Source of the DNA: Firmicutes bacterium CAG:238
GTDB lineage: Bacteria > Bacillota > Clostridia > Christensenellales > CAG-917
Reading direction: 5' to 3'
Assembly: GCA_963659105.1 (NCBI GenBank)
Contig: CAVKTQ010000003.1
Span: 13,228 to 56,655 of the forward strand
DNA: 43,428 nt
A program made the position numbers and the translations under genes. Positions within the stretch are counted from its first letter, which is position 1; every line of letters begins with the position of its first letter. Below are positions 43 to 43,428 of the stretch, one piece after another. The notes below the pieces were generated by a model. It saw nothing but the letters and a program-made list of their open reading frames with translations, did not search any database and was not told where the DNA came from.

Positions 43-1131
43 ATGTATAGAAAACGCATTATTTTGATACTCACTTCACGCGACGAAAGCGACGAAATAT
101 CGCAAAAAATCGCGGAGGCAATACGCAAAATCGGCACGCACAACGTCGTCGTCGTAAGCGACGACAAGTACGGCTCGGCAACCAAACTTTCCGCTCTCGA
201 CAGGCTTATGGACAGCGGAAGCGAGTATCAGTATCTGCTCGAAAAAAAGGACAAAGGCGTCATACGCGATATGTTCAAACTCAAAAGTTTGTCAAAGCGC
301 GTCAACCGCATAAACAACCTAATCAAGCGTTTTCATCCCGAGTATATTTTGTGCGTTACGCCGTACGCTCACCATTGCGCAGTCGAGGCAAAACGCAGAG
401 CGCGCTTCAACACTCAAATCATATATATGCTCCAATCCTTTACGCTTCCCAAACGAGTGCATGATGACGCAACCAATGTGTTTATCGTCGAAAATGCGGA
501 CGTAAAAGCCGATTTGGTGCGACAAGGCATAAAATCCAAAAACGTTATGGTGATGGGGCTTCCCTACGAGGCAGTGCCTAAAACAAGGGAGGAAATCGCA
601 CTCAAAAAGCAAGAGGCAGGACTTCCAAAAGCCAAAACCGTCTACGTCAACGTGCAGGAAAAAAAGCAACTGGAAAACATATTTTCTCTTCTCCTCGATC
701 AAGGCGAAATCGCAAATCTTGCCGTGTACGTCAAGGACGAGCGTATGCTTCAAACATTGTCGGCAATGGCGGTCAAAGCCCCCGAAACCAAGGTTTTGTT
801 TTTGCAAAACGGCGAACAAGCGGACGATTGTCTGCCTGTCTGCGACGTGGCAATCACGCAGTACGACCCGGCAACGCTGTACAAGTGCTTCAAACTCGGA
901 GTGCCGAGCATAGTTGCAAAGAGCGGCGAACACGAGCAGGCGGATATATCCTATCTCGCCTCGCACGAACTTTGCCTCGTTGCCTACCGTGATCTCGATA
1001 TCGTAGGTCTGTTGTACAGGCTCTTGCAGTCGGACGTCGGCGAGAAAATCGCGTCCAACGGCAAGAAGTGGGTGGAAATGAGTTCGCTCGAAAATATTGC
1101 AAACTTCCTGACTGCGTATATAGCAGTGTGA
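43..1131 (+). CDS. Glycosyltransferase, MGDG-synthase/UgtP-like (GT28-type C-terminal domain), divergent
   Basis: ORF 1..1131. An in-frame ATG at 43 is preceded by GAAGGTG. The N-terminus (RIILILTSRDE) looks Rossmann-like. The C-terminal stretch GVPSIVAKSGEHEQADISYLASHELCLVA resembles the nucleotide-sugar-binding end of UgtP/MGDG synthases. Canonical motifs are degenerate, so the function is tentative. Confidence 0.55.
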   Translation: MYRKRIILILTSRDESDEISQKIAEAIRKIGTHNVVVVSDDKYGSATKLSALDRLMDSGSEYQYLLEKKDKGVIRDMFKLKSLSKRVNRINNLIKRFHPEYILCVTPYAHHCAVEAKRRARFNTQIIYMLQSFTLPKRVHDDATNVFIVENADVKADLVRQGIKSKNVMVMGLPYEAVPKTREEIALKKQEAGLPKAKTVYVNVQEKKQLENIFSLLLDQGEIANLAVYVKDERMLQTLSAMAVKAPETKVLFLQNGEQADDCLPVCDVAITQYDPATLYKCFKLGVPSIVAKSGEHEQADISYLASHELCLVAYRDLDIVGLLYRLLQSDVGEKIASNGKKWVEMSSLENIANFLTAYIAV

Positions 1132-1665
1132 GCAAAAATCGTCGCTAAGGCAACGACAACACACAAGTGTGCGCATTGCCGAGAGCCTTGCTTGATTTAT
1201 TGCTCTGCTAACCGCGCAAGCCCTCTTTGCTCTCCCGAACAAGACGGACAAAGAATCCAGCCACAATTCCGCACGAGTGCTTGCTTGGTGAAGCGTGCTT
1301 TGCACACATATGGTGAATTTGAATTATCCATATGTCATTCAGAGCGTAGCGTAGGAATCCAGCCGTAAGCGCATTTCGCTCCGCTTGATTCTCACGGTCA
1401 CTGTGTTCCCTCAGAATGACGAGCGCAAAGAATTTGTGCTATCCGTTCAAGCAAGGACAAAAATCCTGCCGCAATTTCGCAAAATTATCTGCTTGGTGGG
1501 TGCGTGCTTTGCACGCAGTTGCGGAATATTTTAATATTCCATAACCCAAACGACGTTTGGATATCATCGTGCAGAATTGCACGATATCATCACAAAGTGA
1601 TATCATCGCCATAAGCGATATCATTCACTGCGTGAGGAAGGGGGAAAGCTTAAATTGAAGTTATA
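1132..1665. repeat. Mosaic repeat locus R1: L element (1132-1330), foldback F (1334-1420), 5'-truncated L (1421-1540), hairpin/linker array (1546-1635), T-like tail
   Basis: It starts immediately after the stop codon at 1129-1131. Long stretches align with 31810-32590, with the reverse complement of 19713-19922, and with 12463-12610. The ORFs called here are in different frames in different copies, so the region is non-coding. Confidence 0.9.
1334..1420. mobile_element. Foldback (MITE-like) element F, copy 1 (short variant)
   Basis: The termini GTCATTCAGAG ... CTCAGAATGAC are inverted repeats. It aligns with 19611-19709 apart from an internal deletion of about 12 bp. Confidence 0.75.
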
Positions 1666-4604: not shown

Positions 4605-5879
4605 ATGGACTACAATTCATTGCCGACAGACGAACTTGAAAAACTCCTCAAACAAGAGCAGAAAGCCTACAAAAAACTGCAAAAAGCGGACAGAAGCGTG
4701 GATATGACGAGAGGCAAGCCCTCAAAAGAGCAACTCGAAATCGCCATGCCGATGCTCGAAAACGCCGCAAAGTGCAACTTTTCGATGAGTGGATTTGACG
4801 CAAGAAACTACGGCGAACCCGCAGGCGTAAAGCAAGCAAGAGAACTCTTTGCCGAACTTTTGGGAGTAAAAGCGGACGAGGTTATCGCACTTGACGGCTC
4901 GTCGCTCGACATCATGTACAACGTGGTGCAGTTTGCAATGCAATTCGGCGTTTTGGGGTCTACGCCTTGGAACAAACTCAAAAAAGTCAAATTCATTTGT
5001 CCGGCACCGGGCTATGACAGACATTTCTCCATTTGCGAGAACTTCGGCATAGATATGATAACCGTGCCTATGCTTTCGGACGGTCCGGATATGGACCTTG
5101 TGGAGCAACTCGTGCGCGACGACGACAGCGTCAAAGGCATTTGGTGCGTGCCGAAATATTCCAATCCGACGGGAATCGTGTTCTCGGACAAAGTTGTCGA
5201 GCGTATGGCAAACCTCAAACCGAAAGCCAAAGATTTCCGCGTTTTCTGGGACAACGCCTACTGCGTCCACTCCCTCTACGACACCGACGACAAACTCAAA
5301 AACATCTTCGACGTGGCAAGAAAGGCAGGTACGATCGATATGATTTACTGCTTCGCTTCAACCGCAAAAATTACGTTTGCAGGCAGCGGCGTAGCGGTGT
5401 TTGCGTCCTCTCAAAACAACGTGCAGGACATCCTCAAACGCCTCTTTTTCAAGAGAATCAACCCGAACAAAGTCAATCAGGTTATGCACGTCGAGTTTTT
5501 GAAAGACGTTGAAAACATAAAGAATATTATGTCGCAACACGCGGCGATTCTTCGTCCCAAATTCGACCTTTTCAGAGTGAGAATGGACGAAGCGTTTTCG
5601 GACAATCAGAGCGTGACGTGGTCAAAGCCGAGAGGAGGGTATTTCATTTCCCTCGACGTTCAAGGCGCGGCAAAACGCGTTGTGGAACTTGCAAACGAGG
5701 CAGGCGTGAAGTTTACGGCGGCAGGCTCGACTTTCCCCTACAGAATAGACGACAACGACTCGAACATCCGTATCGCGCCCAGCGTACCCTCGCTTGAAGA
5801 AATGGATTTTGCAATCGACGTGCTGATAAGTTCGATAAAGATTGCGCTTATCGAAAAGAGTTTGAAAAATCGCATCTAG
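4605..5879 (+). CDS. PLP-dependent aminotransferase, class I/II fold
   Basis: 424-aa ORF with RBS AGAGGT. It contains motifs typical of fold-type I aminotransferases (SNPTG, and ST.K around the expected PLP lysine). Substrate cannot be determined. Confidence 0.75.
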   Translation: MDYNSLPTDELEKLLKQEQKAYKKLQKADRSVDMTRGKPSKEQLEIAMPMLENAAKCNFSMSGFDARNYGEPAGVKQARELFAELLGVKADEVIALDGSSLDIMYNVVQFAMQFGVLGSTPWNKLKKVKFICPAPGYDRHFSICENFGIDMITVPMLSDGPDMDLVEQLVRDDDSVKGIWCVPKYSNPTGIVFSDKVVERMANLKPKAKDFRVFWDNAYCVHSLYDTDDKLKNIFDVARKAGTIDMIYCFASTAKITFAGSGVAVFASSQNNVQDILKRLFFKRINPNKVNQVMHVEFLKDVENIKNIMSQHAAILRPKFDLFRVRMDEAFSDNQSVTWSKPRGGYFISLDVQGAAKRVVELANEAGVKFTAAGSTFPYRIDDNDSNIRIAPSVPSLEEMDFAIDVLISSIKIALIEKSLKNRI

Positions 5880-5892
5880 GGATGCGATTTTT
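5866..5892 (+). terminator. Intrinsic terminator of the aminotransferase gene
   Basis: Stem AAAATCGCATC / GATGCGATTTT with the TAG stop codon in the loop, followed by a T-run. Confidence 0.75.
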
Positions 5893-5893
5893 C

Positions 5894-6090
5894 AATTAAT
5901 AATTAACAATTAATAATTAATAATTGAGGGTGGGACACGCACACCCGATTGTGCCTGCGGCACAGTGATATTATCTTGCGACAGTGAAATGCACGCTGTG
6001 CGTGCGTGAAATTGTCCTTTCGGACAGTGAAATTTGCACTTCGTGCAAATGAAATTGCACCGTCGGTGCAGTTTTGGAATATTAAAATTC
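5894..6090. repeat. Mosaic repeat locus R2: T module (5894-5947), hairpin/linker array (5950-6070), degenerate hp palindrome
   Basis: An AATTAATAATTAA-rich stretch is followed by GAGGGTGGGACACGCACACCC. Then come the hairpins TGTGCCtgcGGCACA, GCACGCtgtGCGTGC, TGTCCtttcGGACA, TTGCACttcGTGCAA and TGCACCgtcGGTGCA, joined by GTGAAAT/GTGATAT linkers. Confidence 0.9.
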
Positions 6091-6188
6091 TATTTTTCCT
6101 ATTTTTGAAAACATAAAAATTTGCATATTTTTTTGCATATTACCCATACCGCCGTCATAGAGTTTAGCAAACAGAATCGGAGGAGTTT

Positions 6189-9640: not shown

Positions 9641-9822
9641 GAGAGTGCGACAAACTTAATTAAATTGGAAAAAGACCTATTACCTTGGTAACAGGTGCAT
9701 TTTTCGCAAAGCATCGCTTTTTCCAATTTGAGCATGTGGTTTGTCGCAAAATCAGCGAGATGCACTTGTTATATATTGCTTTCTTTGTATCGGGTGTGTT
9801 TCGTTCCCGATACTTTTTTTGG
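9641..9822 (+). promoter_or_regulatory. Structured 5' leader (or small RNA) ending in an intrinsic terminator just before the RBS
   Basis: Nested helices: TGCGACAAAC (9646-9655) pairs with GTTTGTCGCA (9739-9748); TTGGAAAAAG (9665-9674) pairs with CTTTTTCCAA (9717-9726); inner hairpin at 9675-9696. Then the terminator GTATCGGG...CCCGATAC plus T7 (9787-9820), immediately followed by GGAGGAG and the ATG at 9835. Confidence 0.5.
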
Positions 9823-9834
9823 AGGAGAATAAAA

Positions 9835-12051
9835 ATGAAAAGAAAATTTGCGATTACGATTGCATTTTTGCTTGTCGCATTGCTTGCGGCAACACTTGTC
9901 GCTTGCGACATCGATGACGGCAAAACCCCAAACGGAATTGTTTTAAGGGAAGATATGACGTTGGGCGAACTGATAGAAATGGCAAGTGATGTCAAAAGTG
10001 CAACAGTAAAGGCATACGACGAAAGCAATCAACTGATATATGAAAAATATTACAGCGAAAATGCCTGTATATGTTATTTTTATGAAGATAAAGATTTGTA
10101 TTCGTCGCTCGATATGCACGACACTCAGGGGTGGATATTGGACGGATCATTACTCTATCAATTTTACAAAGATGGCGATGATACAAAAATGGCTGTCGTC
10201 GATTATGATGGTTATGATTATGGTTTTTTCGCCATATCTTGTGCCGAAAGCATTTTGGAATGCATCACCGGCGGCAACAGTACAATAGAAAATAACACAA
10301 TTGTTTTTACATCTGTTTTTATATTAGGGTACACTTATATCCCTACTATTGTTTATTCGAACTTAAATAGTACAGAATTTGCACTTCCGAAAGAGTTTGC
10401 AAATTGTAAAGAAGAAGCCGAAACACGTCCTATGCTTGAATATGAGACAACGCCTTTTGAAAACGACGATACAAAATGTAAAATAACAAAAATTAATTGC
10501 AACGACAATTATGAGCTTTTGAAATCAATCGATATCGTTATTCCAAAAACCATTGATGGAAAAACCATCACTGAAATCGGTGAAAATGTGTTTGGATGGG
10601 GCAGTTATTCACGTACTAATGTCAATGTGATAATTCCCGATAGTGTTACAAACATCGGTGATGATGCTTTTTGTTGGTGTCTCGGGCTTTCAAACGTCAC
10701 AATCAGCAACAGTGTGACGAACATCGGCGAATCTGCTTTCGAGAATTGCAGCGGTTTGACGAGCATAACAATCCCAAACAGCGTGACGAACATCGGCAAT
10801 TATGCTTTCTCTGGTTGCAGAAGTTTGACGAGCGTAACAATCGGCAACGGTGTGACGAGCATTGGCAAAAATGTATTTTCCGGTTGTGAGGGTTTAACGA
10901 GCGTCACAATTCCCGAGAGCGTTACGAGCATCGGTGATGATGCTTTTAGTGGGTGTATCGCATTTACAGATATTACGATTCCAAATAGTGTGACTAGCAT
11001 TGGAAATTATGCCTTTTATCATTGCAATGGATTAGTGTATATTGATATTCCGAACAGTGTGACGAGTATAGGCGAGCATGCTTTTGAACGTTGCGAGGGA
11101 TTGTCCGGCGTGACGATTCCCGAGAGTGTTACAAAAATCGGAGACTATGCCTTTTGTAAATGCGATCAATTGGCAAGTGTTACGGTACCAACCGGTGTGA
11201 CGAGTATAGGCGCAGGCGCCGTTTCTGATTGTGCAAAACTGACAACTGTAAACTGGTATGCAACCGCATGTACAACGACGCAATCTGTCTTTTACGATTG
11301 TTTGAACCTAACCGAGTTGAATATAGGCGATAATGTAACAACAATCCCTGCTTATGCCTTTCGTGGTTGTGATGGACTGACAAGTTTAACAATTCCGAAC
11401 AGTGTGACGAGTATAGGAAATGACGCCTTTGTTGGTTGTCGGCGGCTTATTGAAGTGTACAACAAATCATCACTAGATATGGAAGAAAACAGTTTGAGGA
11501 ACTACGGCTTAGATTATATATTGAACGTCTATACGGAAGAAGGCGGAAGTAAACTATCTGTTGATAAAGATGGCTATGTGATATACACAGACGAAGGGAC
11601 GAAGAGCCTTGTTGCATATCACGGAACAGATACGGACATTGTTTTGCCAAGCGGAATCACTACAATTAATCAATACGCCTTCATATATAATGACGGAATT
11701 GCCAGCATCGTAATTCCCGATAGTGTTACAAACATCGGCGATGATGCTTTTTGTTGGTGTCTCGGGCTTTCAAACGTCACAATCGGCAACGGTGTGACGA
11801 GCATTGGCAAAAATGTATTTTCCGGTTGTGAGGGTTTAACGAGCGTCACAATTCCCGAGAGCGTTACGAGCATCGGTGATGATGCTTTTGAGAGGTGCTT
11901 CGAATTAGAAACAATATATTTTAATGGTACAGTGGAAGAATTCAATAAGATTTCCATCGGTGCAAGTGCTTTCGGTAGTACAAAAGCCAAGACCGTTATA
12001 TGCACAAATGGTACTGTAGATAAATACTTCAATGATAGCATCGGCGATTAA
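9835..12051 (+). CDS. Surface lipoprotein with BspA-type leucine-rich repeats (LRR_5-like)
   Basis: ATG 9835 follows GGAGGAG. Signal peptide plus lipobox (LLAATLVAC). More than 15 repeats of about 23 aa of the form IPnSVTsIGdyAFsgCxxLtsV. The in-frame extension back to 9685 lacks an RBS and I reject it. Confidence 0.85.
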   Translation: MKRKFAITIAFLLVALLAATLVACDIDDGKTPNGIVLREDMTLGELIEMASDVKSATVKAYDESNQLIYEKYYSENACICYFYEDKDLYSSLDMHDTQGWILDGSLLYQFYKDGDDTKMAVVDYDGYDYGFFAISCAESILECITGGNSTIENNTIVFTSVFILGYTYIPTIVYSNLNSTEFALPKEFANCKEEAETRPMLEYETTPFENDDTKCKITKINCNDNYELLKSIDIVIPKTIDGKTITEIGENVFGWGSYSRTNVNVIIPDSVTNIGDDAFCWCLGLSNVTISNSVTNIGESAFENCSGLTSITIPNSVTNIGNYAFSGCRSLTSVTIGNGVTSIGKNVFSGCEGLTSVTIPESVTSIGDDAFSGCIAFTDITIPNSVTSIGNYAFYHCNGLVYIDIPNSVTSIGEHAFERCEGLSGVTIPESVTKIGDYAFCKCDQLASVTVPTGVTSIGAGAVSDCAKLTTVNWYATACTTTQSVFYDCLNLTELNIGDNVTTIPAYAFRGCDGLTSLTIPNSVTSIGNDAFVGCRRLIEVYNKSSLDMEENSLRNYGLDYILNVYTEEGGSKLSVDKDGYVIYTDEGTKSLVAYHGTDTDIVLPSGITTINQYAFIYNDGIASIVIPDSVTNIGDDAFCWCLGLSNVTIGNGVTSIGKNVFSGCEGLTSVTIPESVTSIGDDAFERCFELETIYFNGTVEEFNKISIGASAFGSTKAKTVICTNGTVDKYFNDSIGD
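11711..11888 (+). repeat. Intragenic near-identical duplication inside the LRR gene
   Basis: 11711-11786 matches 10631-10706 with one mismatch. 11778-11888 matches 10838-10947 with no differences seen. The two source blocks are about 130 bp apart at the first site and fused at the second. Confidence 0.85.
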
Positions 12052-12118: not shown

Positions 12119-12145
12119 AAAAACGCACCGTCGGGTGCGTTTTTT
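12119..12145. terminator. Bidirectional intrinsic terminator
   Basis: AAAAACGCACC gtcg GGTGCGTTTTT, flanked by A-runs and T-runs, lying between convergent ORFs. Confidence 0.8.
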
Positions 12146-12167
12146 GATCGATTCTCACGAGAGGGGA

Positions 12168-12350
12168 TTACCAGTCCTCACGGTGATTGATTTTGACATC
12201 GTCGTAATACTCAAAGTACTTTTGTTTGTATCTCTGAGTTTCGTTGCGGTGGCGTTTGAGTTCCTCTCTCGCCGCCTTTTCGGCTTCGTTTTTCGGTTCT
12301 GCACCCTTTACTTCGTCAATAGGGGTGAGATTGTATTTCAAATAATCCAT
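12168..12350 (-). CDS. Small hypothetical protein (60 aa, charged)
   Basis: The ORF reads MDYLKYNLTPIDEVKG...YFEYYDDVKINHREDW. Composition is protein-like and it is followed by the shared terminator, but I see no clear RBS upstream. Confidence 0.4.
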   Translation of the reverse strand: MDYLKYNLTPIDEVKGAEPKNEAEKAAREELKRHRNETQRYKQKYFEYYDDVKINHREDW

Positions 12351-12362
12351 ATTAATTTGTAA

Positions 12363-12835
12363 GTGATATTGCACTTATGGTGCAGTGATATTGTCTTACG
12401 ACAGCGATATTGTTGCTTCGCAACGGTGATATTGCGACTTTGTCGCAGTTGCGGAATATTCAAATTTTCCGCTTGCGCACGAAGTGCGCTTCACAAAGCA
12501 GATAATTTGGCGAAACTGTGGCTTGAATCTTTATCCGTGCCTGAACTGATAGCGCAAATTCTCTGCGCGGTTAGTGATTGCGAGAACAAGTGCGGCTTTT
12601 GACAATCGCCCCAAAAGTTTACGTTTCTATTTAGGGGATTCCCACGCTTCGCTCTGAATGACAAAGTGGGCGATTGACGTTGCCACAACGTAGTTTGAGC
12701 AATGGCTCGCCGCTTTGCGGCTCGTGTTCCGTCTGCGAATGAGCAGATACCGTTTATAAGTAGGCTTCGAATTAGTTTTCGTTTCGGGTGTGGGCAGAGC
12801 CCACCCAAAATTATTCATTATTAATTATTAATTAA
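12363..12835. repeat. Mosaic repeat locus R3: hairpin/linker array plus hp (12363-12462), partial inverted L (12463-12610), half F element (12634-12662), T module (12784-12835)
   Basis: GTGATAT-linked hairpins TGCACTtatGGTGCA, TGTCttacGACA, GTTGCttcGCAAC and TGCGACtttGTCGCA. These are followed by GCGGAATATTCAAATTTTCCGC and by GCGCACgaaGTGCGC...AAGCAGATAATTTGGCGAAACTGTGGC, which match the other L copies. Confidence 0.9.
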
Positions 12836-13125
12836 ATCTGTATATGTTCCACGTCGTCGCGGGTGCTGCGCTTGTATATCACGATTTTGTTGCCGATTGC
12901 GGTTACGGGTTCTGCGCCGGTCTTTTGGCATACCTCGTCCAAAACGTCTTTGGCGTTTGCCTCTGCGTTGCGAAGGACGGATATTTTGACAAGTTCGTGA
13001 AGTTCGAGCGCAAGACAAATGTCCTTGACTTGGTTGTCGCCCACGCCGTTTTTGCCGATTTGGAAGATTGGATTTATCGTTTGCGCCATACTGCGAAGTT
13101 TTGCGCGTTGCGTGCTTGTTATCAT
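12832..13125 (-). CDS. yhbY: Ribosome assembly RNA-binding protein YhbY (CRM domain)
   Basis: 97 aa. LTSTQRAKLRS...NPIFQIGKNGV...ELVKI is the typical YhbY signature. RBS GAGGTAA. Confidence 0.88.
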   Translation of the reverse strand: MITSTQRAKLRSMAQTINPIFQIGKNGVGDNQVKDICLALELHELVKISVLRNAEANAKDVLDEVCQKTGAEPVTAIGNKIVIYKRSTRDDVEHIQI

Positions 13126-14484: not shown

Positions 14485-14545
14485 ATATTAATTAAGATAT
14501 TTTGGGGTGTGGGGTGAAACCCCGCCCGAAATTATTGATTATTAA
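14485..14545. repeat. T module copy overlapping the end of potD
   Basis: GGGGTGTGGGGTGAAACCCCGCCCGAA followed by ATTATTGATTATTAA. The AT-rich part encodes the last codons (LNNQ) and the stop codon of potD. Confidence 0.7.
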
Positions 14546-15998
14546 GTTTCTTTGTCTTTCTAGGTCGTACTTTAATTGCTTGCACTATGAAGTACACGCC
14601 GACGACAACAGCGATTGCGCCGACTATCGCCAAAAGGACGTACCAAAGATTTACGTCCACGCCGTCGCCCGATTTCGCTCTTTGCCACATATTGACCACG
14701 ACGTCGTTGCGCTTTCCGAAGTCGCGCATAACGCCCAAAGTGTCGTTGATGACGGGGTAGCGCCCCTCGTCGGCAAAGTATTCTTCGACGTCGTATTCGC
14801 AATCTTCAAGGTATGCGCAAACGTCCTCGTCGGCTTGAAGCAACGCCTTGTTGGTTGCCGAAGTGTAGCCGATTGCAACCGAGTTGCGCACGGAACTTAA
14901 CGGATTGCACATATAGTCGATAAACATCATTGCGGCGAGTTTGTTGTTGACGGACGTCGGTATGCACCAGCCGTCGTACCAAATGTTGCTCGCCACGTCG
15001 GGGACGTAGTAGCCGAGTTGATAGGCGCCCGTTTCCTCGTCGTAGCCGCCTTCCTCGATTGCCCAAAGCGCGTCGCCGCTCCACGCAAAGTCGGCGTAGA
15101 CGATTTCGTTTATCATATCGTCCTTGCCGAAATCAACCTCGTATCCCGAGATATGCTCGCGTTGCTCTGTAAGCACTTTTTCCGCTGCCGCAACCATTTC
15201 GTCGTCGGTGCAGTTGATGAGTTCTTGCACGGAATAGGACTTATATTTTTCGGGGAGGAGGTTGTATTCGTACATATAAAAGATTGCGGCGGCGTAGGTG
15301 TCGCGCACGCTGTCTTTCATAAGGATTTTGTTTTCGAGTTTCTCGTTTTTCTGAACGTTCCAAAGCACGCCCCAGCCGTATTGTTCGAGTTCTTCGAGGC
15401 TGACGACGGACGTGTTGTAGAGTATGCCGAGCGTGCCGCACATATAAGGAACCATATATTCTGTCATGTCATGGCTTGCGCCGTCTTGCGACTTTACGTC
15501 GTTGAACATGCTCGATATCACGTCCATAATATCGGGGTCGATGTTGCCCCAACCCGACCTTAAACTGCTCATATTGTCAAGTGAAATACCGTATTTGGTC
15601 AAATCATCCTGAATTTCGGCTTTTATGTCGTTGTGGTTGAGAAGGCAGTTTGCCGTGAGCAATTTTTCGATTGCGTATTCGCTCGGGCAAATCAAATCGA
15701 CGTTTGCGTCGCCTTTGAGCACCTTTGTCATCATCGTTTCGTTGGTGTCGAAAGTGGTGTAGGTAATAGAAAGCGCGCGCCCCGTTTTTTCTTTGTAGTA
15801 GTCGGCAAATTCGTCGAGCAAAGTCTTGCCCGTTTCCTCGTCGATTTCTGCGTCGATATAGTCTTCCCAGTTGTAGATGACAAGTTTGTCGCCGCCGCTT
15901 TCGCCCTTTGCGCCGTTGTTGCAGGCGGTGAGGACGGGAAGCAAAGTCGCACTCAAAACGAGGACGAGTACAATCAAGGTTGCAATGCGTTTTTTCAT
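14532..15998 (-). CDS. potD: Spermidine/putrescine ABC transporter substrate-binding lipoprotein with an extra C-terminal TM helix
   Basis: ATG 15998 follows AAGGAGG. Lipobox LLPVLTAC. PotD-like body (LVIYNWEDYID...). The C-terminus LWYVLLAIVGAIAVVVGVYFIVQAI plus a basic tail looks like a membrane anchor. The 700-aa ORF extension overlaps potC and I reject it. Confidence 0.85.
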   Translation of the reverse strand: MKKRIATLIVLVLVLSATLLPVLTACNNGAKGESGGDKLVIYNWEDYIDAEIDEETGKTLLDEFADYYKEKTGRALSITYTTFDTNETMMTKVLKGDANVDLICPSEYAIEKLLTANCLLNHNDIKAEIQDDLTKYGISLDNMSSLRSGWGNIDPDIMDVISSMFNDVKSQDGASHDMTEYMVPYMCGTLGILYNTSVVSLEELEQYGWGVLWNVQKNEKLENKILMKDSVRDTYAAAIFYMYEYNLLPEKYKSYSVQELINCTDDEMVAAAEKVLTEQREHISGYEVDFGKDDMINEIVYADFAWSGDALWAIEEGGYDEETGAYQLGYYVPDVASNIWYDGWCIPTSVNNKLAAMMFIDYMCNPLSSVRNSVAIGYTSATNKALLQADEDVCAYLEDCEYDVEEYFADEGRYPVINDTLGVMRDFGKRNDVVVNMWQRAKSGDGVDVNLWYVLLAIVGAIAVVVGVYFIVQAIKVRPRKTKKLNNQ

Positions 15999-19238: not shown

Positions 19239-19317
19239 AGGTAGACCCCTTGTAATTGCACCTACGGTGCAGTTATATTGCGGCAATGCCGCAGTGATAT
19301 CGTTGCCGTGCAACGGT

Positions 19318-19581
19318 GATATCCTCGCAATGCTCGGGCGATATCCTCGCTATGTTCGGGCGATATCCTCGCTATGCTCGGGCGATATCCTCGCTATGTT
19401 CGGGCGATATCCTCGCTATGCTCGGGCGATATCCTCGCTATGTTCGGGCGATATCCTCGCTATGCTCGGGCGATATCCTCGCTATGTTCGGGCGATATCC
19501 TCGCTATGCTCGGGCGATATCCTCGCTATGTTCGGGCGATATCCTCGCTATGCTCGGGCGATATCCTCGCAGTGCGAGGAT
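19318..19581. repeat. Tandem repeat: 12 units of 22 bp (GATATCCTCGCtatgYTCGGGC) with C/T alternation, giving a 44-bp super-period
   Basis: Units start at 19318, 19340, 19362 ... 19560. Units 2-11 are identical apart from the alternating C/T. The last unit is a perfect hairpin, CCTCGCagtGCGAGG. Confidence 0.97.
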
Positions 19582-19610
19582 TGCGGATTATTCAAATCTG
19601 TTTTCCGCTT

Positions 19611-19709
19611 GTCATTCAGAGGAGCAACAGAGTTGCGACGTAGGAATCAAGGCGAAGCCGCATTTCGCTACGCTGGATTCTCACGGTCACTTTGTTCCCT
19701 CAGAATGAC
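19611..19709. mobile_element. Foldback (MITE-like) element F, copy 2 (full length, 99 bp)
   Basis: GTCATTCAGAGG...CCCTCAGAATGAC. It is near-identical to the reverse complement of 32136-32235. Confidence 0.8.
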
Positions 19710-19967
19710 ACATGGAAGATTTAAATCTTCCGCTCAACTGCGTGCGAAGCACGCTCTCACCAAACAGATAATCTTGCGAAACTGCGGCTTGATTATTTGT
19801 CCGTCTTGTTTTGATAGCAAAGATTCTCTGTGCGGTAGAAGCGCAATAAATCGAGTAAGGTTCTCGGCGATACGCAAATCTGCGTGTTGCCGTTGCCTCA
19901 GCGACGATTTTTGCGCAGTACGATTTCATCACGAAGTGATATCATCGCCAAAGGCGATATCATTTTA

Positions 19968-24077: not shown

Positions 24078-24442
24078 GGGGGTGTTCTGGATTCGACATT
24101 CGGTCTGATGCGGGATAAGCACGTCGTAGGCTCGGCTACGTAAAAACGGAACGTTAAAATTAAACGCAAAAAACAATCAAAAGAGCTCCAATATGGAGTT
24201 CGCTCTTGCTGCATAATTTAAGTCGGCACGTCGACGCGAGGTTTTCTGTTCCCTCGTCAATCGGCGTCAGAAAAACAGACAACGCAATCTGATTTCTCGG
24301 TAGGGTTGTTGTCAATACGAGATCATCGAGGCAAGGTTTGTAGGTGAACCGAACTTAGAAAAATTTTAATCACCGACTAAACGTGTAGAAAGTGCCGAGT
24401 ACGGTCGGGTGGACCGGGGTTCAAATCCCCGCACTTCCACCA
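24078..24442 (+). ncRNA. ssrA: tmRNA (SsrA), 365 nt
   Basis: 5' GGGGGTGTTCTGGATTCGAC and 3' GGACCGGGGTTCAAATCCCCGCACTTCCACCA. The acceptor stem includes a G3:U pair. The tag reading frame is GCA AAA AAC ... GCT CTT GCT GCA TAA, giving AKNNQKSSNMEFALAA. Confidence 0.95.
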
Positions 24443-26982: not shown

Positions 26983-26984
26983 AA

Positions 26985-27060
26985 AGGTCGCTAGGGGTGC
27001 TGTAAAGCTGAGATGATACCCTCAAACTTGTGAGATAATCCTCGCGTAAGGAAGCAACAA
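26985..27060 (+). promoter_or_regulatory. TPP (THI-box) riboswitch aptamer
   Basis: CTAGGGGTGC...GCTGAGA...ACCC...ACTTGTGAGATAATCCTCGCGTAAGGAAG follows the conserved THI element pattern (GGGGTGC / CTGAGA / ACCC / GATAAT...GCGTAGGGAA). The downstream gene is ThiT-like. Confidence 0.8.
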
Positions 27061-27121
27061 AACGAAAGTTTAAGACATTGCCTTTTCTTTTCAAGTTCCC
27101 CATAGCAGGAGGACTTTTTTT

Positions 27122-28297
27122 ATGGATATCGAAACCTTATCCGACAAACTGCAATTCGTCGCGCTTTATCTTGCCGTCGCGCTCACAGCGGCGTTTATCG
27201 TCGTTGGTTTGCTCGTTCGGTTTTTCAAAAAGGAAAAATTCAACGACTTCAAAAAGTATGCCGTGGGCATAACGACGGGCTTTGCCGTGACTATGGTCGT
27301 GGTGTTTGCCTACGTCAAATTCCAGTGCAACATCGACGATATGCAGGCAAAACTCTTTTACCCCATACTCGCAACGCTCATAACCGTAGTCGCAGGGGCG
27401 ATTGCGATGCTCGTAAGTTCGCTTTTCAGCGACAAGGCGGTCAAGATTTCCTTTATCGTCACCGCCGTTTTGACGCTTGGTTGCTTTATAGCCACAATGG
27501 TGCTTATGGCGCAATACTACGGCGACATCGCAGAGTATTATCCCAAAGCGAATCTCGTCGGAATGATCGTGTCCGCCGTCGTGTTTATGGCGATTATGGT
27601 TGCGATGTGGTTTGTGGGCGACAAACGCAAGATGAGCGACACTCGCTCTATCGTGTACGGCGCAATCTCGATTGCGCTCTCGTTTGCCCTTTCCTATGCG
27701 AAACTTTTCAAACTTCCGCAGGGTGGTTCCGTGACGTTTGCAAGCCTCCTTCCGCTCATGATTTACTGCTGTATGTTCGGCACGAGAAGGGGACTTATCG
27801 TATGCGCGATTTACGGCGTTTTGCAAGCGTTGCAAGATCCGTACATCATTCACCCGATGCAATTTTTGCTCGACTATCCTCTCGCTTTCGGGCTTATCGG
27901 CGTCAGCGGAATATTTATGGAAAAGGGTGTGTTCAAGGACAAAAAAGTGGTTGCGTTCTTGCTCGGCGGCGTGCTTGCCGTTGTGTTGAGATATGCTTGC
28001 CACGTTTGCTCGGGCGTATTTGCGTTTGCAGACTACGCAGACCTTGACAAGTACGACACGGCAATCGCGTACAGCATGGCGTACAACTCGTTTGCGTTTG
28101 TGGATATGCTCATTGCGCTCGTCGCAGGAAGCACGTTGTTTGCTTCGAAATCGTTTTCCGCTCTCATGCAAAAGTCGAGCGACGTGAACAATGCGGCGGA
28201 AGTTAAAACCGAGCAACCGACAGACGACGAAGAAGATTTGGACGAGATAGACAAGCAAATTATTGAAAATCAAGAGAACAAAAACAGCAATCAATAA
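27122..28297 (+). CDS. ThiT-like thiamine transporter (ECF S-component-like C-terminal half) fused to an extra N-terminal multi-TM domain
   Basis: 391 aa. Residues ~180-345 (IVYGAISIALSFALS...GGSVTFASLLPLMIYCCMFGTRRG...YPLAFGLIG) resemble ThiT. The N-terminal ~170 aa add about 5 TM helices, and the C-terminal tail is acidic. Confidence 0.7.
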   Translation: MDIETLSDKLQFVALYLAVALTAAFIVVGLLVRFFKKEKFNDFKKYAVGITTGFAVTMVVVFAYVKFQCNIDDMQAKLFYPILATLITVVAGAIAMLVSSLFSDKAVKISFIVTAVLTLGCFIATMVLMAQYYGDIAEYYPKANLVGMIVSAVVFMAIMVAMWFVGDKRKMSDTRSIVYGAISIALSFALSYAKLFKLPQGGSVTFASLLPLMIYCCMFGTRRGLIVCAIYGVLQALQDPYIIHPMQFLLDYPLAFGLIGVSGIFMEKGVFKDKKVVAFLLGGVLAVVLRYACHVCSGVFAFADYADLDKYDTAIAYSMAYNSFAFVDMLIALVAGSTLFASKSFSALMQKSSDVNNAAEVKTEQPTDDEEDLDEIDKQIIENQENKNSNQ

Positions 28298-28313: not shown

Positions 28314-28880
28314 GTGCCTGCGGCACAATGATATTGCACTTCGTGCAGTTATATTGTGTCTGCGACACAGTAAGATTCTCGCTCTGCGAGAGTGATATTG
28401 CGGCGTTGCCGCAGTTGCGGAAGATTCAAATTTTCCATATGTCATTCTGAGGGAATGAAGTGACGGCGAGAATCAAGCGAAGCGAAATGCGGCTGTCGCC
28501 TTGATTGCCACGTTACAACGATATTGCTCCTCCACAGTGATTGTGCGCATTTAGCGCAAGCCTACGGCTTTAATTTGCACTTGTGCAAATACAATCACTC
28601 CAAAAATATCGTCGTTCGCAAACCCTTGCAAGCAAGTTTCCTCACTCGACATTGACGCAATGACGATAGGGGGGGACACCCACACTCGAACAGATATTCA
28701 AATATTCCTCAACCCAAACGAAGTTTGGATATCATCGTGCGATATGCACGATATCATCACAACGTGATATCATCGCCATAGGCGATATCATTTAGGTGAG
28801 GCTGGGGAAGCTTCAAATAAAATGCATCGAGGGCGGGACACCCGCGCCCGAATAAAACACCCGCACCGAATAAAACAAAT
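28314..28880. repeat. Mosaic repeat locus R5: hairpin/linker array plus hp (28314-28436), F (28441-28532), unique multi-hairpin segment (28533-28690), hp plus array (28691-28791), T-type module (28796-28880)
   Basis: Hairpins GTGCCtgcGGCAC, TGCACttcGTGCA, TGTGTCtgcGACACA, TCTCGCtctGCGAGA and TGCGGCgttGCCGCA joined by GTGATAT-like linkers. The second array is near-identical to 32443-32520 and 1546-1620. Confidence 0.9.
28441..28532. mobile_element. Foldback element F, copy 3 (inverted, distal terminus degenerate)
   Basis: GTCATTCTGAGGGAATGAAGTGAC... aligns with 32136-32228. The final CTGAATGAC terminus is missing. Confidence 0.7.
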
Positions 28881-28896
28881 TCACCCGAATCAAATC

Positions 28897-28924
28897 AAAA
28901 AGCACGGCAGCGCCGTGCTTTTCC
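28897..28924. terminator. Hairpin terminator between convergent thiT-like and thiN genes
   Basis: AGCACGGC agc GCCGTGCT, flanked by A5 and T4. Confidence 0.65.
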
Positions 28925-29033: not shown

Positions 29034-29636
29034 TCATCGTTTTATGTATCTGAACACGAATACGCCGCCTCGTTTGACGTTGATGTGAATCTTTCCGCCG
29101 AGCGATACGTTGCTTAGTCCGCGCGATGAGCAAGAGGCGAGAACAAGTTCGTCAAGAGGGTATTCGAGATTCTTCGAATCGCTCACAAGCGCGCTTTCGC
29201 CGTAGGGAAGGATGGATATGGTTTCGCCCTTTTGAGTGGGCATATCGAACTCGCCCTCGACGTAATAGATGTCCAAACCGTCTTCCTCGGCTTTTGCACT
29301 CATACCGAGAGAGTGGGCAAGGCGCATAATGGAAAGGTTGCAAAGGACGTGGTCCACTCTGCCGCCAGTTATGCCGTAAAACACGAGAGAGTCGGCGTTA
29401 TACGTTTCTTTTGCGTAGTACACGGCAAGTTCGCCGTCGCTTGCGTCCTTGTGAGGATTGTGCTCGACGAGGGGAATGTCGATACCCTCGGGTTTTTCGA
29501 GAGAATCGAAATCGCCGAGTATGACGTCGGGCGTCACGGTGCATACGTTGAAACCGCCGTCGCAACATACGACTTTGTCGCCTTTGATTTTGCGCTTTAT
29601 TTCGCTTCCGCAATTGAGAACAATGGATACTTGCAT
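29034..29636 (-). CDS. thiN: Thiamine pyrophosphokinase
   Basis: 200 aa starting at ATG 29636. Contains ILGDFDS and GITGGRVDH motifs typical of TPK. The 319-aa ORF extension lacks support. Confidence 0.82.
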   Translation of the reverse strand: MQVSIVLNCGSEIKRKIKGDKVVCCDGGFNVCTVTPDVILGDFDSLEKPEGIDIPLVEHNPHKDASDGELAVYYAKETYNADSLVFYGITGGRVDHVLCNLSIMRLAHSLGMSAKAEEDGLDIYYVEGEFDMPTQKGETISILPYGESALVSDSKNLEYPLDELVLASCSSRGLSNVSLGGKIHINVKRGGVFVFRYIKR

Positions 29637-29765
29637 AAAAACAGTGTAGCACGGCGAGAGAATTTTTGCAATTTTTGTCGCAGTATTTTTCAAAACTGCT
29701 ATTGAAAATGTATGTTTTATTGTATATAATACACTTATAAAACCTTGTTTTTGAGGGATGCGCAT

Positions 29766-30692
29766 ATGAAAGAGTTCAAACTCAAAAGTTTTGACAACAC
29801 CGAGATTTACTGCAGGCTTTGGGATGACGCGGACAATCCAAAAGGCGTCATTCAACTCGTGCACGGTATGAGCGAGTACGCAGGTCGCTACGACGAGTTT
29901 GCTCGCTACCTCAACACGAGAGGCTACATAGTGTTCGGCGACGACCACCGCGCGCACGGACTCACCGAAACAGACCAAAATCGAGGCAAGCATCCCGGCA
30001 ATATTTTCAAAAAGACGTTAAAAGACGAGTTGTTCTTCCGCGAGTGGCTCAAGTCGCAATACAATCTGCCCGTGTTCCTTATGGGACACAGCTACGGCAG
30101 TTTCCTCTCGCAGGCGTTTGCGCAAGAGGGTACGGACGTAAAGGCAATCGCGCTCATAGGCTCGGGGCATATGAGAGATTTGTTCAATCTCGGCAAAATC
30201 GTCGTCGCTCCGATATTCCTTGTAGCGAGAAACTGGCGTCCGCGCGTCGTCAACTTTGTGAGCGACAACTTCCAAAAATTCAAGGGCGACGAGGGCAAAT
30301 TGCAGTGGGCAAACAGCGTCCGCGCAAGGCGCGAGGACGTGCTTGCAGATCCGCTCGCACACCAAAATATGTCCGTCGGCTTCGACTTCTATATGATGAA
30401 GGAAACTTCCAAACTGTACGGCAAAAAAGCGCAGGCAAAACTCAATCCGGCAACCGCAATAGGCATCTTTTCGGGCGACGCGGACTCCGTCGGACAAATG
30501 GGCAAAGGCGTCAAAAAACTCGACAAGATGTACAGACAAAACGGTATCAAAACCGAATTGCATCTCTACCACGGCGCAAGACACGAGGTGTTTTACGATT
30601 GGTGCGGCGAGCAAATGCAAAAAGACGTCGCCGACTTTTTCGACAAATTCATCATCTACGAGCAAACCAGCATAGACGATTTGTGTAAATAA
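29766..30692 (+). CDS. Alpha/beta hydrolase (lysophospholipase / monoacylglycerol-lipase-like)
   Basis: ATG 29766 follows GAGGGA. It has the HGMSEYAGRY motif and the nucleophile elbow GHSYG. Confidence 0.8.
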   Translation: MKEFKLKSFDNTEIYCRLWDDADNPKGVIQLVHGMSEYAGRYDEFARYLNTRGYIVFGDDHRAHGLTETDQNRGKHPGNIFKKTLKDELFFREWLKSQYNLPVFLMGHSYGSFLSQAFAQEGTDVKAIALIGSGHMRDLFNLGKIVVAPIFLVARNWRPRVVNFVSDNFQKFKGDEGKLQWANSVRARREDVLADPLAHQNMSVGFDFYMMKETSKLYGKKAQAKLNPATAIGIFSGDADSVGQMGKGVKKLDKMYRQNGIKTELHLYHGARHEVFYDWCGEQMQKDVADFFDKFIIYEQTSIDDLCK

Positions 30693-31768: not shown

Positions 31769-32590
31769 TGCCTTAGGCACAATGAAATGCACGCAAGCGT
31801 GCGTGAAATTGCGCAAAAATCATCGCATAGGCAACGGCAACACGCAAGTGTGCGTATCGCCGAGAGCCTTGCTCGATTTATTGCGCAACTACCGCGCAGA
31901 GAATCTTTGCTATCAAAATAAGACGGATAAACAATCAAGCCGCAGTTTCGCAAGATTATCTGCTTGGTGAAGCGCACTTCGTGCGCAGTTGAGCGGAAGA
32001 TTTGAATATTCCATAACCCAAACGAAGTTTGGATATCATCGTGCAATATGCACGATATCATCACAGCGTGATATCATCGCCGCAGGCGATATCATTGCAC
32101 AGAGCGCAATAGCGGATAAATTGAATAATCCATATGTCATTCTGAGGGAACGGAGTTACCGTGAGAATCAAGCTTAGCGCAATGCGGTTGTCGCCTTGAT
32201 TCCTACGTCGCAACGATGTTGCTTCTCTGAATGACAAGCGCAAAAATCATCGCATTAGCAACGGCAACACGCAAGTTTGCGTATCGCCGAGAGCCGTGCT
32301 CTATTTATTGCGCTACTAACCGCGCAGAGAATTTGCGCTATCAGTTCAAGCACAAATAAAACCTCACGCCACAATTTCGCCAAATTATCTGCTTGGTGAA
32401 GCGCACTTCGTGCGCAGGATGAGGATTCAAATATTCCGCAACCCAAACGAAGTTTGGATATCATCGTGCAATATGCACGATATCATCACAACGTGATATC
32501 ACCGCCATAGGCGATATCATTTATGTGAGGATGGCGAATCTTCAAATAAAATACATCGAGGGCGGAACACCCGCACCCGAATAAATTATT
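31769..32590. repeat. Mosaic repeat locus R6 (most complete): mini-array, L (31810-32012), array (32018-32110), hp, F (32136-32235), L (32236-32440), array (32443-32520), T-type module (32521-32590)
   Basis: Two tandem L copies are visibly similar over about 200 nt. The arrays carry ATATCAT linkers. The module order largely parallels R1. Confidence 0.92.
32136..32235. mobile_element. Foldback element F, copy 4 (full length, inverted relative to copies 1 and 2)
   Basis: GTCATTCTGAGGGAACGG...GCTTCTCTGAATGAC, flanked by TCC-ATAT on the left and AAGCGCAAAAATC (start of L) on the right. Confidence 0.8.
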
Positions 32591-32611
32591 CGCAGAAAAC
32601 AAACAAAATTT

Positions 32612-33733: not shown

Positions 33734-33781
33734 AAAATAGGCGGAATAGGGCATAGTTTTTGAGATAAAAACTATGGAAGA

Positions 33782-33891
33782 AACCGCAAAAAAACCGCAA
33801 AAAAACCGCAAAGAAACCGCAAAAAAACCGCAAAGAAACCGCAAAGAAACCGCAAAGAAACCGCAAAGAAACCGCAAAGAAACCGCAAAAA
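33782..33891. repeat. Tandem repeat: 10 units of 11 bp (AACCGCAAA[G/A]A)
   Basis: Units start at 33782, 33793 ... 33881. A-tracts recur every 11 bp. A 41-codon ORF (33774-33899) runs through the repeat. Confidence 0.97.
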
Positions 33892-40523: not shown

Positions 40524-43112
<2,589 letters not shown>

Positions 43113-43222: not shown

Positions 43223-43276
43223 TTAGCACTCTTTATCTTCGATTGCTAATTATAGCACCAAATTTTGCAATGTCAA
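43223..43276 (-). promoter_or_regulatory. clpB promoter (TTGACA, 16-bp spacer, TGcTATAAT) with an overlapping CIRCE-like operator
   Basis: CIRCE candidate TTAGCACTC-n9-GATTGCTAA at 43223-43249, one mismatch to TTAGCACTC-N9-GAGTGCTAA. On the minus strand the -10 is at 43249-43254 and the -35 at 43271-43276. Confidence 0.65.
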
Positions 43277-43428
43277 TATATTCTGCACAAATTTTCAAGA
43301 TTTTTTTCAAGAGAAAAATTTAAATTTTTGTTAATCCTCTACACGAGTGTACGGCGTGTACTTTAATTACAATTTCCCCCTTCCTCACGTGTTTCCCCTA
43401 CCGCCGTTCCCCCTCTGCATACTTTGAG

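Follow-up and report, generated by a model that had tools for sequence, protein, structure and literature searches.

Mosaic intergenic repeats with the Gut-1 hairpin motif as one module in a gut lineage of uncultured Clostridia

Introduction

Which kind of element fills the long intergenic spacers of a bacterial chromosome with the same few structured sequences in changing order and orientation? The question is raised by a stretch of 43,428 nucleotides of Firmicutes bacterium CAG:238 (Clostridia, Christensenellales; assembly GCA_963659105.1, contig CAVKTQ010000003.1, positions 13,228 to 56,655 of the forward strand), termed the window throughout the paper. A preliminary description, made from the letters alone, had proposed that six loci of this window, R1 (1132-1665), R2 (5894-6090), R3 (12363-12835), R4 (19257-19966), R5 (28314-28880) and R6 (31769-32590), were assembled from one set of modules: an L element, an AT-rich palindrome (hp), arrays of short hairpins joined by GATATCA(C/T) linkers, a foldback element (F) and a T module. 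We conclude, with a probability of roughly 0.6, that these loci represent a lineage-specific, non-coding mosaic intergenic repeat system of the BIME, BOX and bcr kind, which contains the Gut-1 motif as one of its modules, is co-transcribed with neighbouring genes and is reshuffled by recombination at short shared joints.

Results

Six intergenic loci share one set of modules

The repeats are real. When the six long spacers were compared to the whole window by self-BLAST, all partners lay within these loci themselves, with identities of 65-92% and in direct as well as inverted orientation. The same families (D6, D8-D10, D13-D16, I1-I19) were recovered by a repeat search of the window, and nhmmer searches with hidden Markov models (HMMs) built from the module copies of the window located 6 copies of L, 4 of T, and 4 complete F together with a single F end in the six loci (Table 1). 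Using the hp pattern GGAAnATTnAAATnTTCC with up to 3 mismatches, 20 matches were found in the window versus 2.7 expected, a number reached by none of 100 shuffles. Thus, the proposal of six intergenic loci with a common module set was borne out, and so was their estimated extent of about 3.3 kb or 7-8% of the window, as the six ranges sum up to 3303 nt (7.6%). The modules listed before all exist; the list was nevertheless incomplete, since an additional weak T match lies outside the six loci at 14502-14548 and an M-type piece at 43340-43428.

The latter contains, inverted, a 17-nt piece of the T-like tail of R1; this recurrence near the right edge had been noted before and taken to suggest a further copy beyond the edge. 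The 17-mer CGTGAGGAAGGGGGAAA is indeed present at 1631-1647 (+) and 43373-43389 (-), with 0.02 expected, and the stretch from the inverted 17-mer to the window edge matches a further module of a related genome. Both edge pieces, the inverted 17-mer and the motif CTCAAAGTATGCAGAGGGGGAACGGCGGTAGGG, recur in the R1 ortholog of one related stretch (L070). The single order L-hp-F-L-hp-array-T formerly assigned to both R1 and R6 had to be given up on the basis of self-BLAST, alignments and orthologs. R6 is ordered hairpins-L-hp-array-hp-F-L-hp-array-T, R1 is ordered L-hp-F(inverted)-truncated L-hp-array-tail, with the tail comprising the T head only. The two loci are old, diverged copies and no assembly duplication, as stated before: they share 76-82% identity, and orthologous loci in independently assembled metagenome-assembled genomes (MAGs) carry the same modules. 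Outside the repeats, the linker core GATATC was found at 7 sites versus 10.3 expected; an avoidance of this sequence was rejected as unremarkable.

The hairpin arrays correspond to Gut-1

The array at 5982-6060 (+) matched the Rfam family Gut-1 (RF01706) with 66.4 bits, compared to a gathering score of 50. Five other arrays (R1, R3, R5, two in R6) matched Gut-1 under the cut-off, at 32-43 bits and E-values of 1e-5 to 0.02, while the R4 array is tied to these Gut-1-like arrays solely via 70-75% identity to those of R3 and R5. Next to L in two stretches of related MAGs (L021, L082), Gut-1 was detected above the cut-off with 57.2 and 52 bits. The GATATCA(C/T) linkers read GUGAUAU/GUGAAAU on the opposite strand, and the cmscan alignments display three consecutive variable short hairpins with (G)UGAAAU-type linkers, which define the motif. 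Judged by sequence and scores, the hairpin-array module is the Gut-1 motif. The earlier statement that no described family was recognised in the sequences, for which a clear match to a known non-coding RNA family would count as disproof, consequently fell for the arrays. It stands for L, F, hp and T, which gave no match in Rfam 15, phages, plasmids and the searched literature. With E-values allowed up to 1 for the whole window and up to 10 for R6, the arrays were the only repeat modules with an Rfam 15 match. The literature on Gut-1, RF01706, Christensenellales repeats and Clostridia mosaic repeats yielded nothing past the 2010 publication, and L, F, hp and T are undescribed there.

Gut-1 was defined from 43 human-gut metagenome sequences and classed as probable non-coding RNA, with no organism, genomic setting or function assigned (Weinberg et al., 2010; PMC2864571). 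The published seed with its flanks consists of a forward array ending in GCAGUU, an AT-rich palindrome, and a reverse array whose linkers read AUAUCAC (Weinberg et al., 2010; PMC2864571). Therefore, hp is the centre of a symmetric array(+)-hp-array(-) unit, and in the genome analysed here L and F adjoin this centre. When a Gut-1 seed sequence was folded, the left linkers paired with the right linkers (z = -7.3). The published motif and the repeats described here have in common at least three short variable hairpins, GUGAAAU/GUGAUAU linkers, the GCAGUU end, the downstream AT palindrome with reverse array, and the human gut as habitat. They differ in that Gut-1 was published as a stand-alone candidate small RNA (sRNA) known from metagenome reads only (PMC2864571), whereas here it is a module that lies in either orientation, recurs at many loci of a genome and belongs to named MAG lineages; moreover, most local arrays have GAUAUC-type linkers and score under the Rfam cut-off. 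Instead of forming a stand-alone gene, the arrays are parts of composite repeats. They flank hp in either orientation and border directly on L, F, T or the end of a gene. This setting questions the annotation of the Gut-1 family, not the sequence membership of the arrays.

Between NTGAWAT linkers, 81 unique hairpins were counted, with 88% Watson-Crick pairs at the outer positions. The unit periods cluster at 16-23 nt, with a constant part of 7 nt and a self-complementary variable part. The array of R4 contains 11.5 copies of the 22-nt unit GATATCCTCGCTATGCTCGGGC (19318-19570) with C/T alternation and hence a 44-nt super-period, and this tandem ends about 70 nt upstream of the start codon of an ABC-transporter ATPase gene (ATG 19238, - strand). 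Orthologs of five related genomes have only one or two units. The expansion is specific to this genome and makes the tandem a candidate variable-number tandem repeat (VNTR).

Several other identities of the arrays were rejected. CRISPR arrays have repeats of 24-48 nt compared to units of 16-23 nt here, the variable part is self-complementary, and no cas domains were found among the scanned open reading frames (ORFs). Type III toxin-antitoxin arrays (unit size, missing partner genes) and dif/Xer sites (no likeness to the consensus) were dismissed as well. A loose three-linker pattern gave only non-specific matches in IMG/VR (among them giant viruses and coding tandem repeats) and was discarded as uninformative.

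L is a structured and constrained module

L comprises about 180 nt. In an alignment of 110 distinct copies, the 3' domain is conserved and the 5' domain comes in at least three alternative forms; that of the R3 copy (form B) is unlike those of the remaining window copies. The long-range helix of the 3' domain occurs in three mutually complementary versions, AGAGAATC/GATTATCT, AAGCCCTC/GAGTGCTT and AATCGTTCG/CGAACGATT. RNAalifold predicted 15 helix pairs, and compensatory changes were seen in 7 of these. In total, 98.3% of the helix cells were paired, compared to 89% in column shuffles (0 of 500 reached the observed value) and 28-45% with slid partners. The terminal hairpin covaries as well (GCGCAC..GUGCGC versus GCGUGC..GCACGC). 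One G.U pair of the helix is conserved in 109 of the 110 copies. In the core helix, 130 G.U were counted versus 10 A.C, a signal mostly supplied by this single pair; the per-form folds gave 218 versus 28 and 206 versus 13. This excess points to the L strand as the folded strand.

For nine ortholog pairs, mean identity was 94.5% for L, 91.6% for coding sequence and 83.1% for third codon positions, with L above third positions in 9/9; the pairs are not independent and each required a long BLAST alignment spanning the L copy. Due to this conservation above third codon positions, L looks like a constrained structured RNA domain and not like neutral repeat DNA. Of 107 copies of the L core, at most 24 had any given reading frame open throughout, which shows that L is non-coding, in agreement with the earlier claim that the elements do not code.

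Form-A copies follow a same-strand long ORF that ends within 200 nt upstream in 35 of 52 cases and within 10 nt in 13. L frequently starts directly at the stop codon of the upstream gene on the same strand or no more than 10 nt from it; in five cases, its first three bases are the stop codon. In R1, the first bases of L (1129..1310) overlap the TGA stop of the upstream glycosyltransferase-like gene. Between co-directional genes, 30 sense and 10 antisense copies were counted, using crude ORF calls at many orthologous and consequently not independent loci. In about 10 copies from other genomes the terminal hairpin is swapped for a GC stem with T run, a canonical intrinsic terminator; most L copies carry none. 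Near-identical tandem runs of L exist in other genomes, for instance three units with a 176-nt period in stretch L051. Beyond the modules listed above, 'GGCGGTAGGGCGCG...' pieces following L (L070:757-1229 and many aligned L copies) and the form-B and form-C 5' domains of L were recognised as further modules. A riboswitch or leader function of L was rejected, as the genes downstream of L have nothing in common and its copies are too numerous.

F and T

F measures 88-102 nt, has the ends TGTCATTC(T/A)GAG...CTC(T/A)GAATGACA and folds back on itself (z = -2.4). Terminal inverted repeats, small size and the lack of an ORF are features of miniature inverted-repeat transposable elements (MITEs). Its 'GGGAAC' arm is preceded by hp and ATA in 10 of 13 unique copies, with R1, where F is inverted, as an exception. 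F is followed by AGCG and then by hp, L or T. No target-site duplication was detected; most of the 13 unique copies have ATA as left and AGCG as right flank, with no direct repeat. The 5' domain of form-B L opens with the same terminal repeat as F. In 756 kb of related stretches, no paired F termini enclosing an ORF were found.

T consists of an AT-rich stretch with stops in all frames and a covarying G-rich hairpin, and often overlaps or lies 3' of a gene stop codon. The hairpin is followed by GAAUAAA or GAUUG and no U tract. T was therefore rejected as an intrinsic terminator; a scan for terminators put the true bidirectional ones beyond the module boundaries, at 5866-5893, 12120-12146 and 28897-28923. 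The T of R2 (5890..5950) directly follows the terminator of the aminotransferase gene. To arrive at its terminator, a transcript of the + strand gene at R5 would have to run through some 570 nt of repeats.

Range in related genomes and rapid module turnover

A 24-nt degenerate L-core pattern was searched against the GTDB representatives (one genome per species). More than 105 stretches from about 15 related MAG species were found, and all of the matches listed were gut MAGs. They include 'uncultured Clostridiales bacterium' UMGS1042, UMGS1043, UMGS1170 and UMGS1331, 'Christensenella sp.' UBA6880, 'Firmicutes bacterium CAG:475', Hadza MAGs, and the complete 1.65-Mb MAG CP091723.1. In the 756 kb of related stretches, the HMMs matched 175 L and 117 F; across the closer genomes L, F, T, hp and arrays were found together. 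The L pattern was absent from IMG/VR, and a distant-mode search of phage and plasmid collections with R6 gave no match.

The window is syntenic with several related MAGs at approximately 73-97% nucleotide identity, 90-97% in the longest blocks. Some syntenic, repeat-bearing bins (90-97% identity) carry the record titles 'Phascolarctobacterium succinatutens' (CAVBBF), 'Anaeroplasmataceae bacterium' (CAVKUX) and 'Firmicutes bacterium TM09-10' (CAVABL), which look like taxonomic mislabels in public records.

Turnover at the level of modules is rapid. With flanking genes 88-98% identical, orthologous spacers differ by whole modules through gain, loss, truncation, inversion and tandem amplification. 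The R1 spacer has 592 nt here versus 243 and 471 nt in orthologs, the latter being an alternative composite in L070. For R4, 738 nt compare to 335, 335, 351, 527 and 682 nt, and for R6, 860 nt compare to 397 and 561 nt. In the orthologs, module junctions lie at hp and at GATATC/GCTATC motifs. The first L of R6 is 98% identical to its orthologs, compared to 92-94% for the flanks of the same orthologs.

Mobility genes

In agreement with the preliminary description, no transposase, integrase or RAYT (REP-associated tyrosine transposase) domain was found among 30 large window ORFs scanned. Beside the copies in other genomes, no RAYT or other transposase recurred either, as judged from 555 ORFs and 149 neighbouring proteins. 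Among 555 ORFs near repeats in the 756 kb, none was multi-copy within its assembly except one pair of repeat-protein ORFs. A Pfam analysis of 149 non-redundant proteins encoded within 1.2 kb of L or F showed no recurrent mobility family among the 25 commonest of 146 families, a result which a single transposase could still escape. Housekeeping families prevailed, e.g., tRNA synthetases, PFK, PEPCK, SHMT and radical SAM enzymes.

The ORF pair belongs to a related MAG and represents paralogs resembling a BspA-type repeat protein. Within the window, a BspA-type protein of 788 aa whose leucine-rich repeats measure 69 nt (23 aa) is encoded at 9685-12051 (+).

Table 1. Positions of the repeat modules in the window.
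Locus	Feature	Position	Strand	Evidence
R1	L, full, form-A 5' domain	1129..1310	+	nhmmer 1130-1332, score 193.6; alignment
R1	hp, degenerate	1312..1329	.	pattern match, 3 mismatches
R1	F foldback, short form, inverted relative to hp compared to R4/R5/R6	1333..1420	-	repeats I10, I11, D19; self-BLAST; HMM
R1	truncated L, 3' domain only	1421..1520	+	nhmmer 1423-1543, HMM positions 86-204
R1	hp GGAATATTTTAATATTCC	1523..1540	.	pattern, 0-1 mismatch
R1	four-hairpin array, GATATCAT linkers, Gut-1-like on - strand	1545..1626	-	Rfam Gut-1 1556-1626 (-), 32.1 bits, E 0.016; family D8
R1	GTGAGGAAGGGGGAAAGCTTAAAT tail piece, recurs inverted at right window edge	1631..1660	+	17-mer match; related-genome module
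R2	T, AT-rich all-frame stops, then G-rich hairpin	5890..5950	+	nhmmer score 47.5
R2	hairpin array, GTGAAAT/GTGATAT linkers	5951..6072	+	RF01706 at 5982-6060, 66.4 bits (gathering 50)
R2	hp, degenerate	6076..6093	.	pattern
R3	hairpin array, Gut-1-like	12361..12447	+	Rfam Gut-1 12361-12437, 41.6 bits, E 6.5e-5
R3	hp	12453..12470	.	pattern, 0 mismatches
R3	L, form-B 5' domain opening with F-type terminal repeat (12636-12663)	12474..12663	-	nhmmer 12450-12642, score 173; alignment; repeat I18
R3	T, overlapping stop codon of yhbY (- strand)	12776..12836	-	nhmmer score 51.6
	solitary T, at stop of solute-binding-protein gene	14502..14548	-	nhmmer E 1e-4
R4	hairpin array incl. 22-nt tandem (11.5 copies, 19318-19570)	19255..19575	+	Tandem Repeats Finder; repeat D1
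R4	F foldback, hp on both sides (~19584-19605; 19714-19731)	19610..19710	-	HMM, alignment, pattern
R4	L, form A	19735..19917	-	nhmmer score 205.2
R4	partial array, two hairpins, GATATCAT linkers, ending at HTH-cupin gene stop	19920..19965	+	repeat D8; self-BLAST
R5	hairpin array, Gut-1-like	28317..28410	+	Rfam Gut-1 28326-28403, 42.6 bits, E 3.5e-5
R5	hp	28419..28436	.	pattern
R5	F foldback, degenerate right end	28440..28540	+	nhmmer score 135; alignment
R5	degenerate hp, then four-hairpin GATATCAT array, Gut-1-like on - strand	28691..28793	-	repeats D6, D8, D10; self-BLAST
R5	T	28794..28881	+	HMM; true bidirectional terminator just past at 28897-28923
R6	two hairpins, AATGAAAT/GTGAAAT linkers, running into L	31769..31809	+	weak Gut-1 match 31780-31814
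R6	L, first copy, form A	31810..31990	+	nhmmer score 215.3
R6	hp	31995..32012	.	pattern
R6	four-hairpin array, Gut-1-like on - strand	32017..32097	-	Rfam Gut-1 32028-32097 (-), 34.9 bits
R6	degenerate hp before F	32114..32131	.	pattern
R6	F foldback, 102 nt, ends TGTCATTCTGAG...CTCTGAATGACA	32135..32236	+	HMM, alignment, fold
R6	L, second copy	32238..32417	+	nhmmer score 212.6
R6	hp	32420..32437	.	pattern
R6	four-hairpin array, Gut-1-like on - strand	32442..32522	-	Rfam Gut-1 32453-32522 (-), 37.6 bits, E 1.3e-5
R6	T, ~20 nt upstream of radical SAM gene start	32523..32592	+	nhmmer; fold
	cut copy of further module at window edge, with inverted 17-mer and motif CTCAAAGTATGCAGAGGGGGAACGGCGGTAGGG, upstream of clpB promoter	43340..43428	-	sequence match

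Other features of the window

The window has a G+C content of about 48% and an ordinary housekeeping gene content, including genes for SpoIVA, EngA, ClpB, an aspartate aminotransferase, ABC transporter parts and two radical SAM enzymes. This gene content places the host among the spore-forming Firmicutes. A transfer-messenger RNA gene was identified at 24078-24442 (+) with 152.9 bits and the tag peptide AKNNQKSSNMEFALAA. Between the R3 repeats and the terminator at 12120-12146, an ORF of 60 aa (MDYLKYNLTPIDEVKGAEPKNEAEKAAREELKRHRNETQRYKQKYFEYYDDVKINHREDW) is located at 12170-12352 (-), below the threshold of 80 aa used for the ORF list of the window. The spacer after the radical SAM gene contains 10.2 copies of the 11-nt tandem unit AAGAAACCGCA with 96% matches (33778-33889); its period is not divisible by three, and the unit has no relation to the mosaic modules.

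A thiamine pyrophosphate (TPP) riboswitch-like element at 26983-27069 (+) scored 49.7 bits, compared to a gathering score of 54.3, directly upstream of a gene for a ThiT/YuaJ-type thiamine transporter (27122-28297). Probably, the element is a genuine TPP riboswitch whose P3 stem is shortened. A thiamine pyrophosphokinase gene (29034-29993, - strand) is convergent toward the transporter gene. Upstream of clpB (40524-43112, - strand) lies the CIRCE-like inverted repeat TTAGCACTC-N9-GATTGCTAA (43223-43249), preceded by a good sigma-A promoter (TTGACA-N17-TATAAT, - strand); this location in front of clpB suggests control by HrcA.

Discussion

How could such a mosaic repeat system work? The modules would mostly be co-transcribed with the neighbouring genes, as their usual site lies between a stop codon and the true terminator or next gene, with a bias toward the sense orientation. 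They may act as RNA, in the form of structured 3' untranslated or inter-cistronic elements which serve as exonuclease barriers, as processing or termination sites, or for translation insulation. Palindrome hp would represent the joint between modules and T a cap. Spread and reshuffling might proceed by recombination or template switching among dispersed copies at short shared joints, and a transposase encoded beside the modules would play no part in it.

We are aware of several points that weigh against this interpretation. Both the co-transcription with any RNA-level role and the mobilisation by recombination at joints are inferred, and insertion sequence (IS) copies are often lost from MAG assemblies. 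The G.U signal of the L core helix depends largely on one pair, mean single-sequence folding energy gives the L strand no advantage, and the required alignments may have biased the constraint test toward conserved copies. The orientation of L is a bias only, with 24 of 82 copies antisense to the upstream gene, and the sense counts suffer from the crude ORF calls and orthologous loci mentioned above. For the array hairpins, 6 G.U versus 12 A.C were counted. Lacking an excess of G.U, the arrays carry no strand evidence, and, with arrays in opposite orientations on both sides of hp, a DNA-level or strand-neutral element fits as well.

Among the competing explanations, it appears unlikely that F above all, and perhaps L, are non-autonomous MITEs moved in trans by a transposase encoded elsewhere, with the hairpins as recognition structures and the RNA structure incidental. 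The size of F of about 100 nt, its 12-14-nt terminal inverted repeats and self-foldback, its presence or absence at orthologous loci, and its inversion in R1 agree with such a scenario, as does the F terminal repeat at the 5' end of form-B L. Moreover, L often abuts or supplies a TAA or TGA stop, as would be seen for a preferred insertion target. However, ATA on one side and AGCG on the other side of F leave no target-site duplication, and its attachment to hp in one orientation in 10 of 13 copies indicates a composite part, not a free insertion. Neither a multi-copy IS-like ORF (555 ORFs) nor a recurrent transposase family (149 proteins) was found, nor was any transposase present in the window, and phages, plasmids and IMG/VR were free of matches. 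Purifying selection on L with strand-specific covariation also argues against it. The latter covariation, together with the conservation of L, its terminator-bearing copies and its tandem arrays (three units with a 176-nt period in L051), would likewise fit independent trans-acting sRNA genes with their own promoters and terminators, and the constant linkers between hairpins of variable sequence would fit Gut-1 arrays acting as GUGAUAU sponges for an RNA-binding protein in a CsrB/CsrA-like manner; Gut-1 was classed as probable non-coding RNA (Weinberg et al., 2010; PMC2864571). We nevertheless consider this quite improbable. There is no constant context upstream of L; a stop codon, an F end or an array linker directly precedes it, which leaves no room for a promoter. 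The terminator is missing from most copies, six L in 43 kb are far denser than known sRNA families, and with arrays in both orientations per locus at most half of them would show GUGAUAU on one transcript.

Stems that vary yet stay self-complementary indicate selection on a folded single strand and not on a duplex site, the linker GUGAAAU of the Gut-1 consensus is non-palindromic, and the conserved G.U pair of the L helix is an A.C mismatch on the opposite strand. For these reasons we regard it as very improbable that phased GATATC linkers and hp are iteron- or centromere-like sites for a nucleoid, segregation or replication protein and serve chromosome architecture, even though the periods of 16-23 nt (22 nt, or about two helical turns, in R4), the symmetric array(+)-AT palindrome-array(-) layout, and the nearly complete Watson-Crick pairing of the array stems with no strand asymmetry are what such sites would show. 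In E. coli, BIME-1 carries an IHF site between inverted REPs. Finally, repeats are known to cause misassembly, and the length of the 22-nt array of R4, as read here, rests on the present assembly. Chimeric joins or collapsed repeats are nevertheless of negligible probability. The same modules at orthologous positions of many independently assembled MAGs, including a complete chromosome titled as long-read ('lr') bin, rule out an assembly artefact, and the window copies are 65-92% identical and not identical.

The mosaic repeat system favoured here has relatives in architecture. As suggested by the preliminary description, its loci are non-coding, modular and mosaic, and thus in concept BIME- and BOX-like. 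E. coli REP/BIME elements are intergenic hairpin mosaics with alternating orientation, few linker motifs and a central AT-rich motif resembling a protein site; they lie at gene 3' ends or between operon genes, are co-transcribed and vary between strains. The repeats of the window share no sequence similarity with them and no GTAG-type head, their conserved part being the 7-nt linker. Their stems are variable and those of REP fixed, BIMEs contain nothing that corresponds to L and F, the host is Gram-positive and anaerobic, and RAYT was found neither in the window nor as a recurrent family among the 149 neighbour proteins. The pneumococcal BOX elements (boxA-boxB(n)-boxC), together with RUP and SPRITE, are modular Firmicutes repeats with a tandem-repeatable middle unit, intergenic, non-coding, predicted to form stable RNA, and mobilised by an unclear route. 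Here the sequences differ, more module types occur in both orders and orientations, and the covariation and purifying selection of L go beyond simple hairpins. The bcr1-bcr18 repeats of the Bacillus cereus group are Firmicutes repeats of 100-400 nt near gene ends, some MITE-like with terminal inverted repeats, others with conserved RNA structure and compensatory changes. They are unrelated in sequence and host clade, and mostly separate elements, in contrast to the shuffled mosaic with shared joints found here. Finally, F resembles the Correia elements of Neisseria and other MITEs in its size class of about 100-150 nt, terminal inverted repeats, foldback, occurrence in either orientation, presence or absence between strains, and co-transcription. 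Correia elements duplicate a TA target, whereas no such duplication accompanies F, which is joined to hp in a single orientation in nearly all cases; a parent IS with F ends was found neither in the 756 kb nor in phage or plasmid collections.

The kind of system is consequently known and one of its modules is catalogued. The L, F, hp and T families, the architecture around Gut-1, the host lineage and the constraint on L appear to be undescribed. A more far-reaching idea, which we hold to be rather unlikely, would combine L as a new structured-RNA class with the array/hp/reverse-array unit as a self-organising single-strand scaffold into a new genome element driven by RNA and single-stranded DNA structure. 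Each small genome would then contain about a hundred L copies or more, which purifying selection would maintain for an activity of their own, e.g., self-cleavage, processing, or service as a protein-recruiting 3' untranslated domain, while pairing between left and right linkers would form stacked junctions and the scaffold would let modules recombine and spread without a dedicated transposase.

So far, the repeat system reveals no new mechanism. The orphan motif Gut-1, since 2010 seen in gut metagenome reads only, gains a host lineage and a genomic context, which suggest that it is a module of interspersed repeats and not a stand-alone sRNA gene. In uncultured gut Clostridia with small genomes, about 7-10% of this region consists of rapidly reshuffled structured repeats, which is unusual at a genome size of approximately 1.6 Mb. 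These repeats will affect MAG assembly, strain typing via module and VNTR polymorphisms, and operon annotation, and in L they offer a testable case of what may be a new structured RNA domain, present in multiple copies and under selection.

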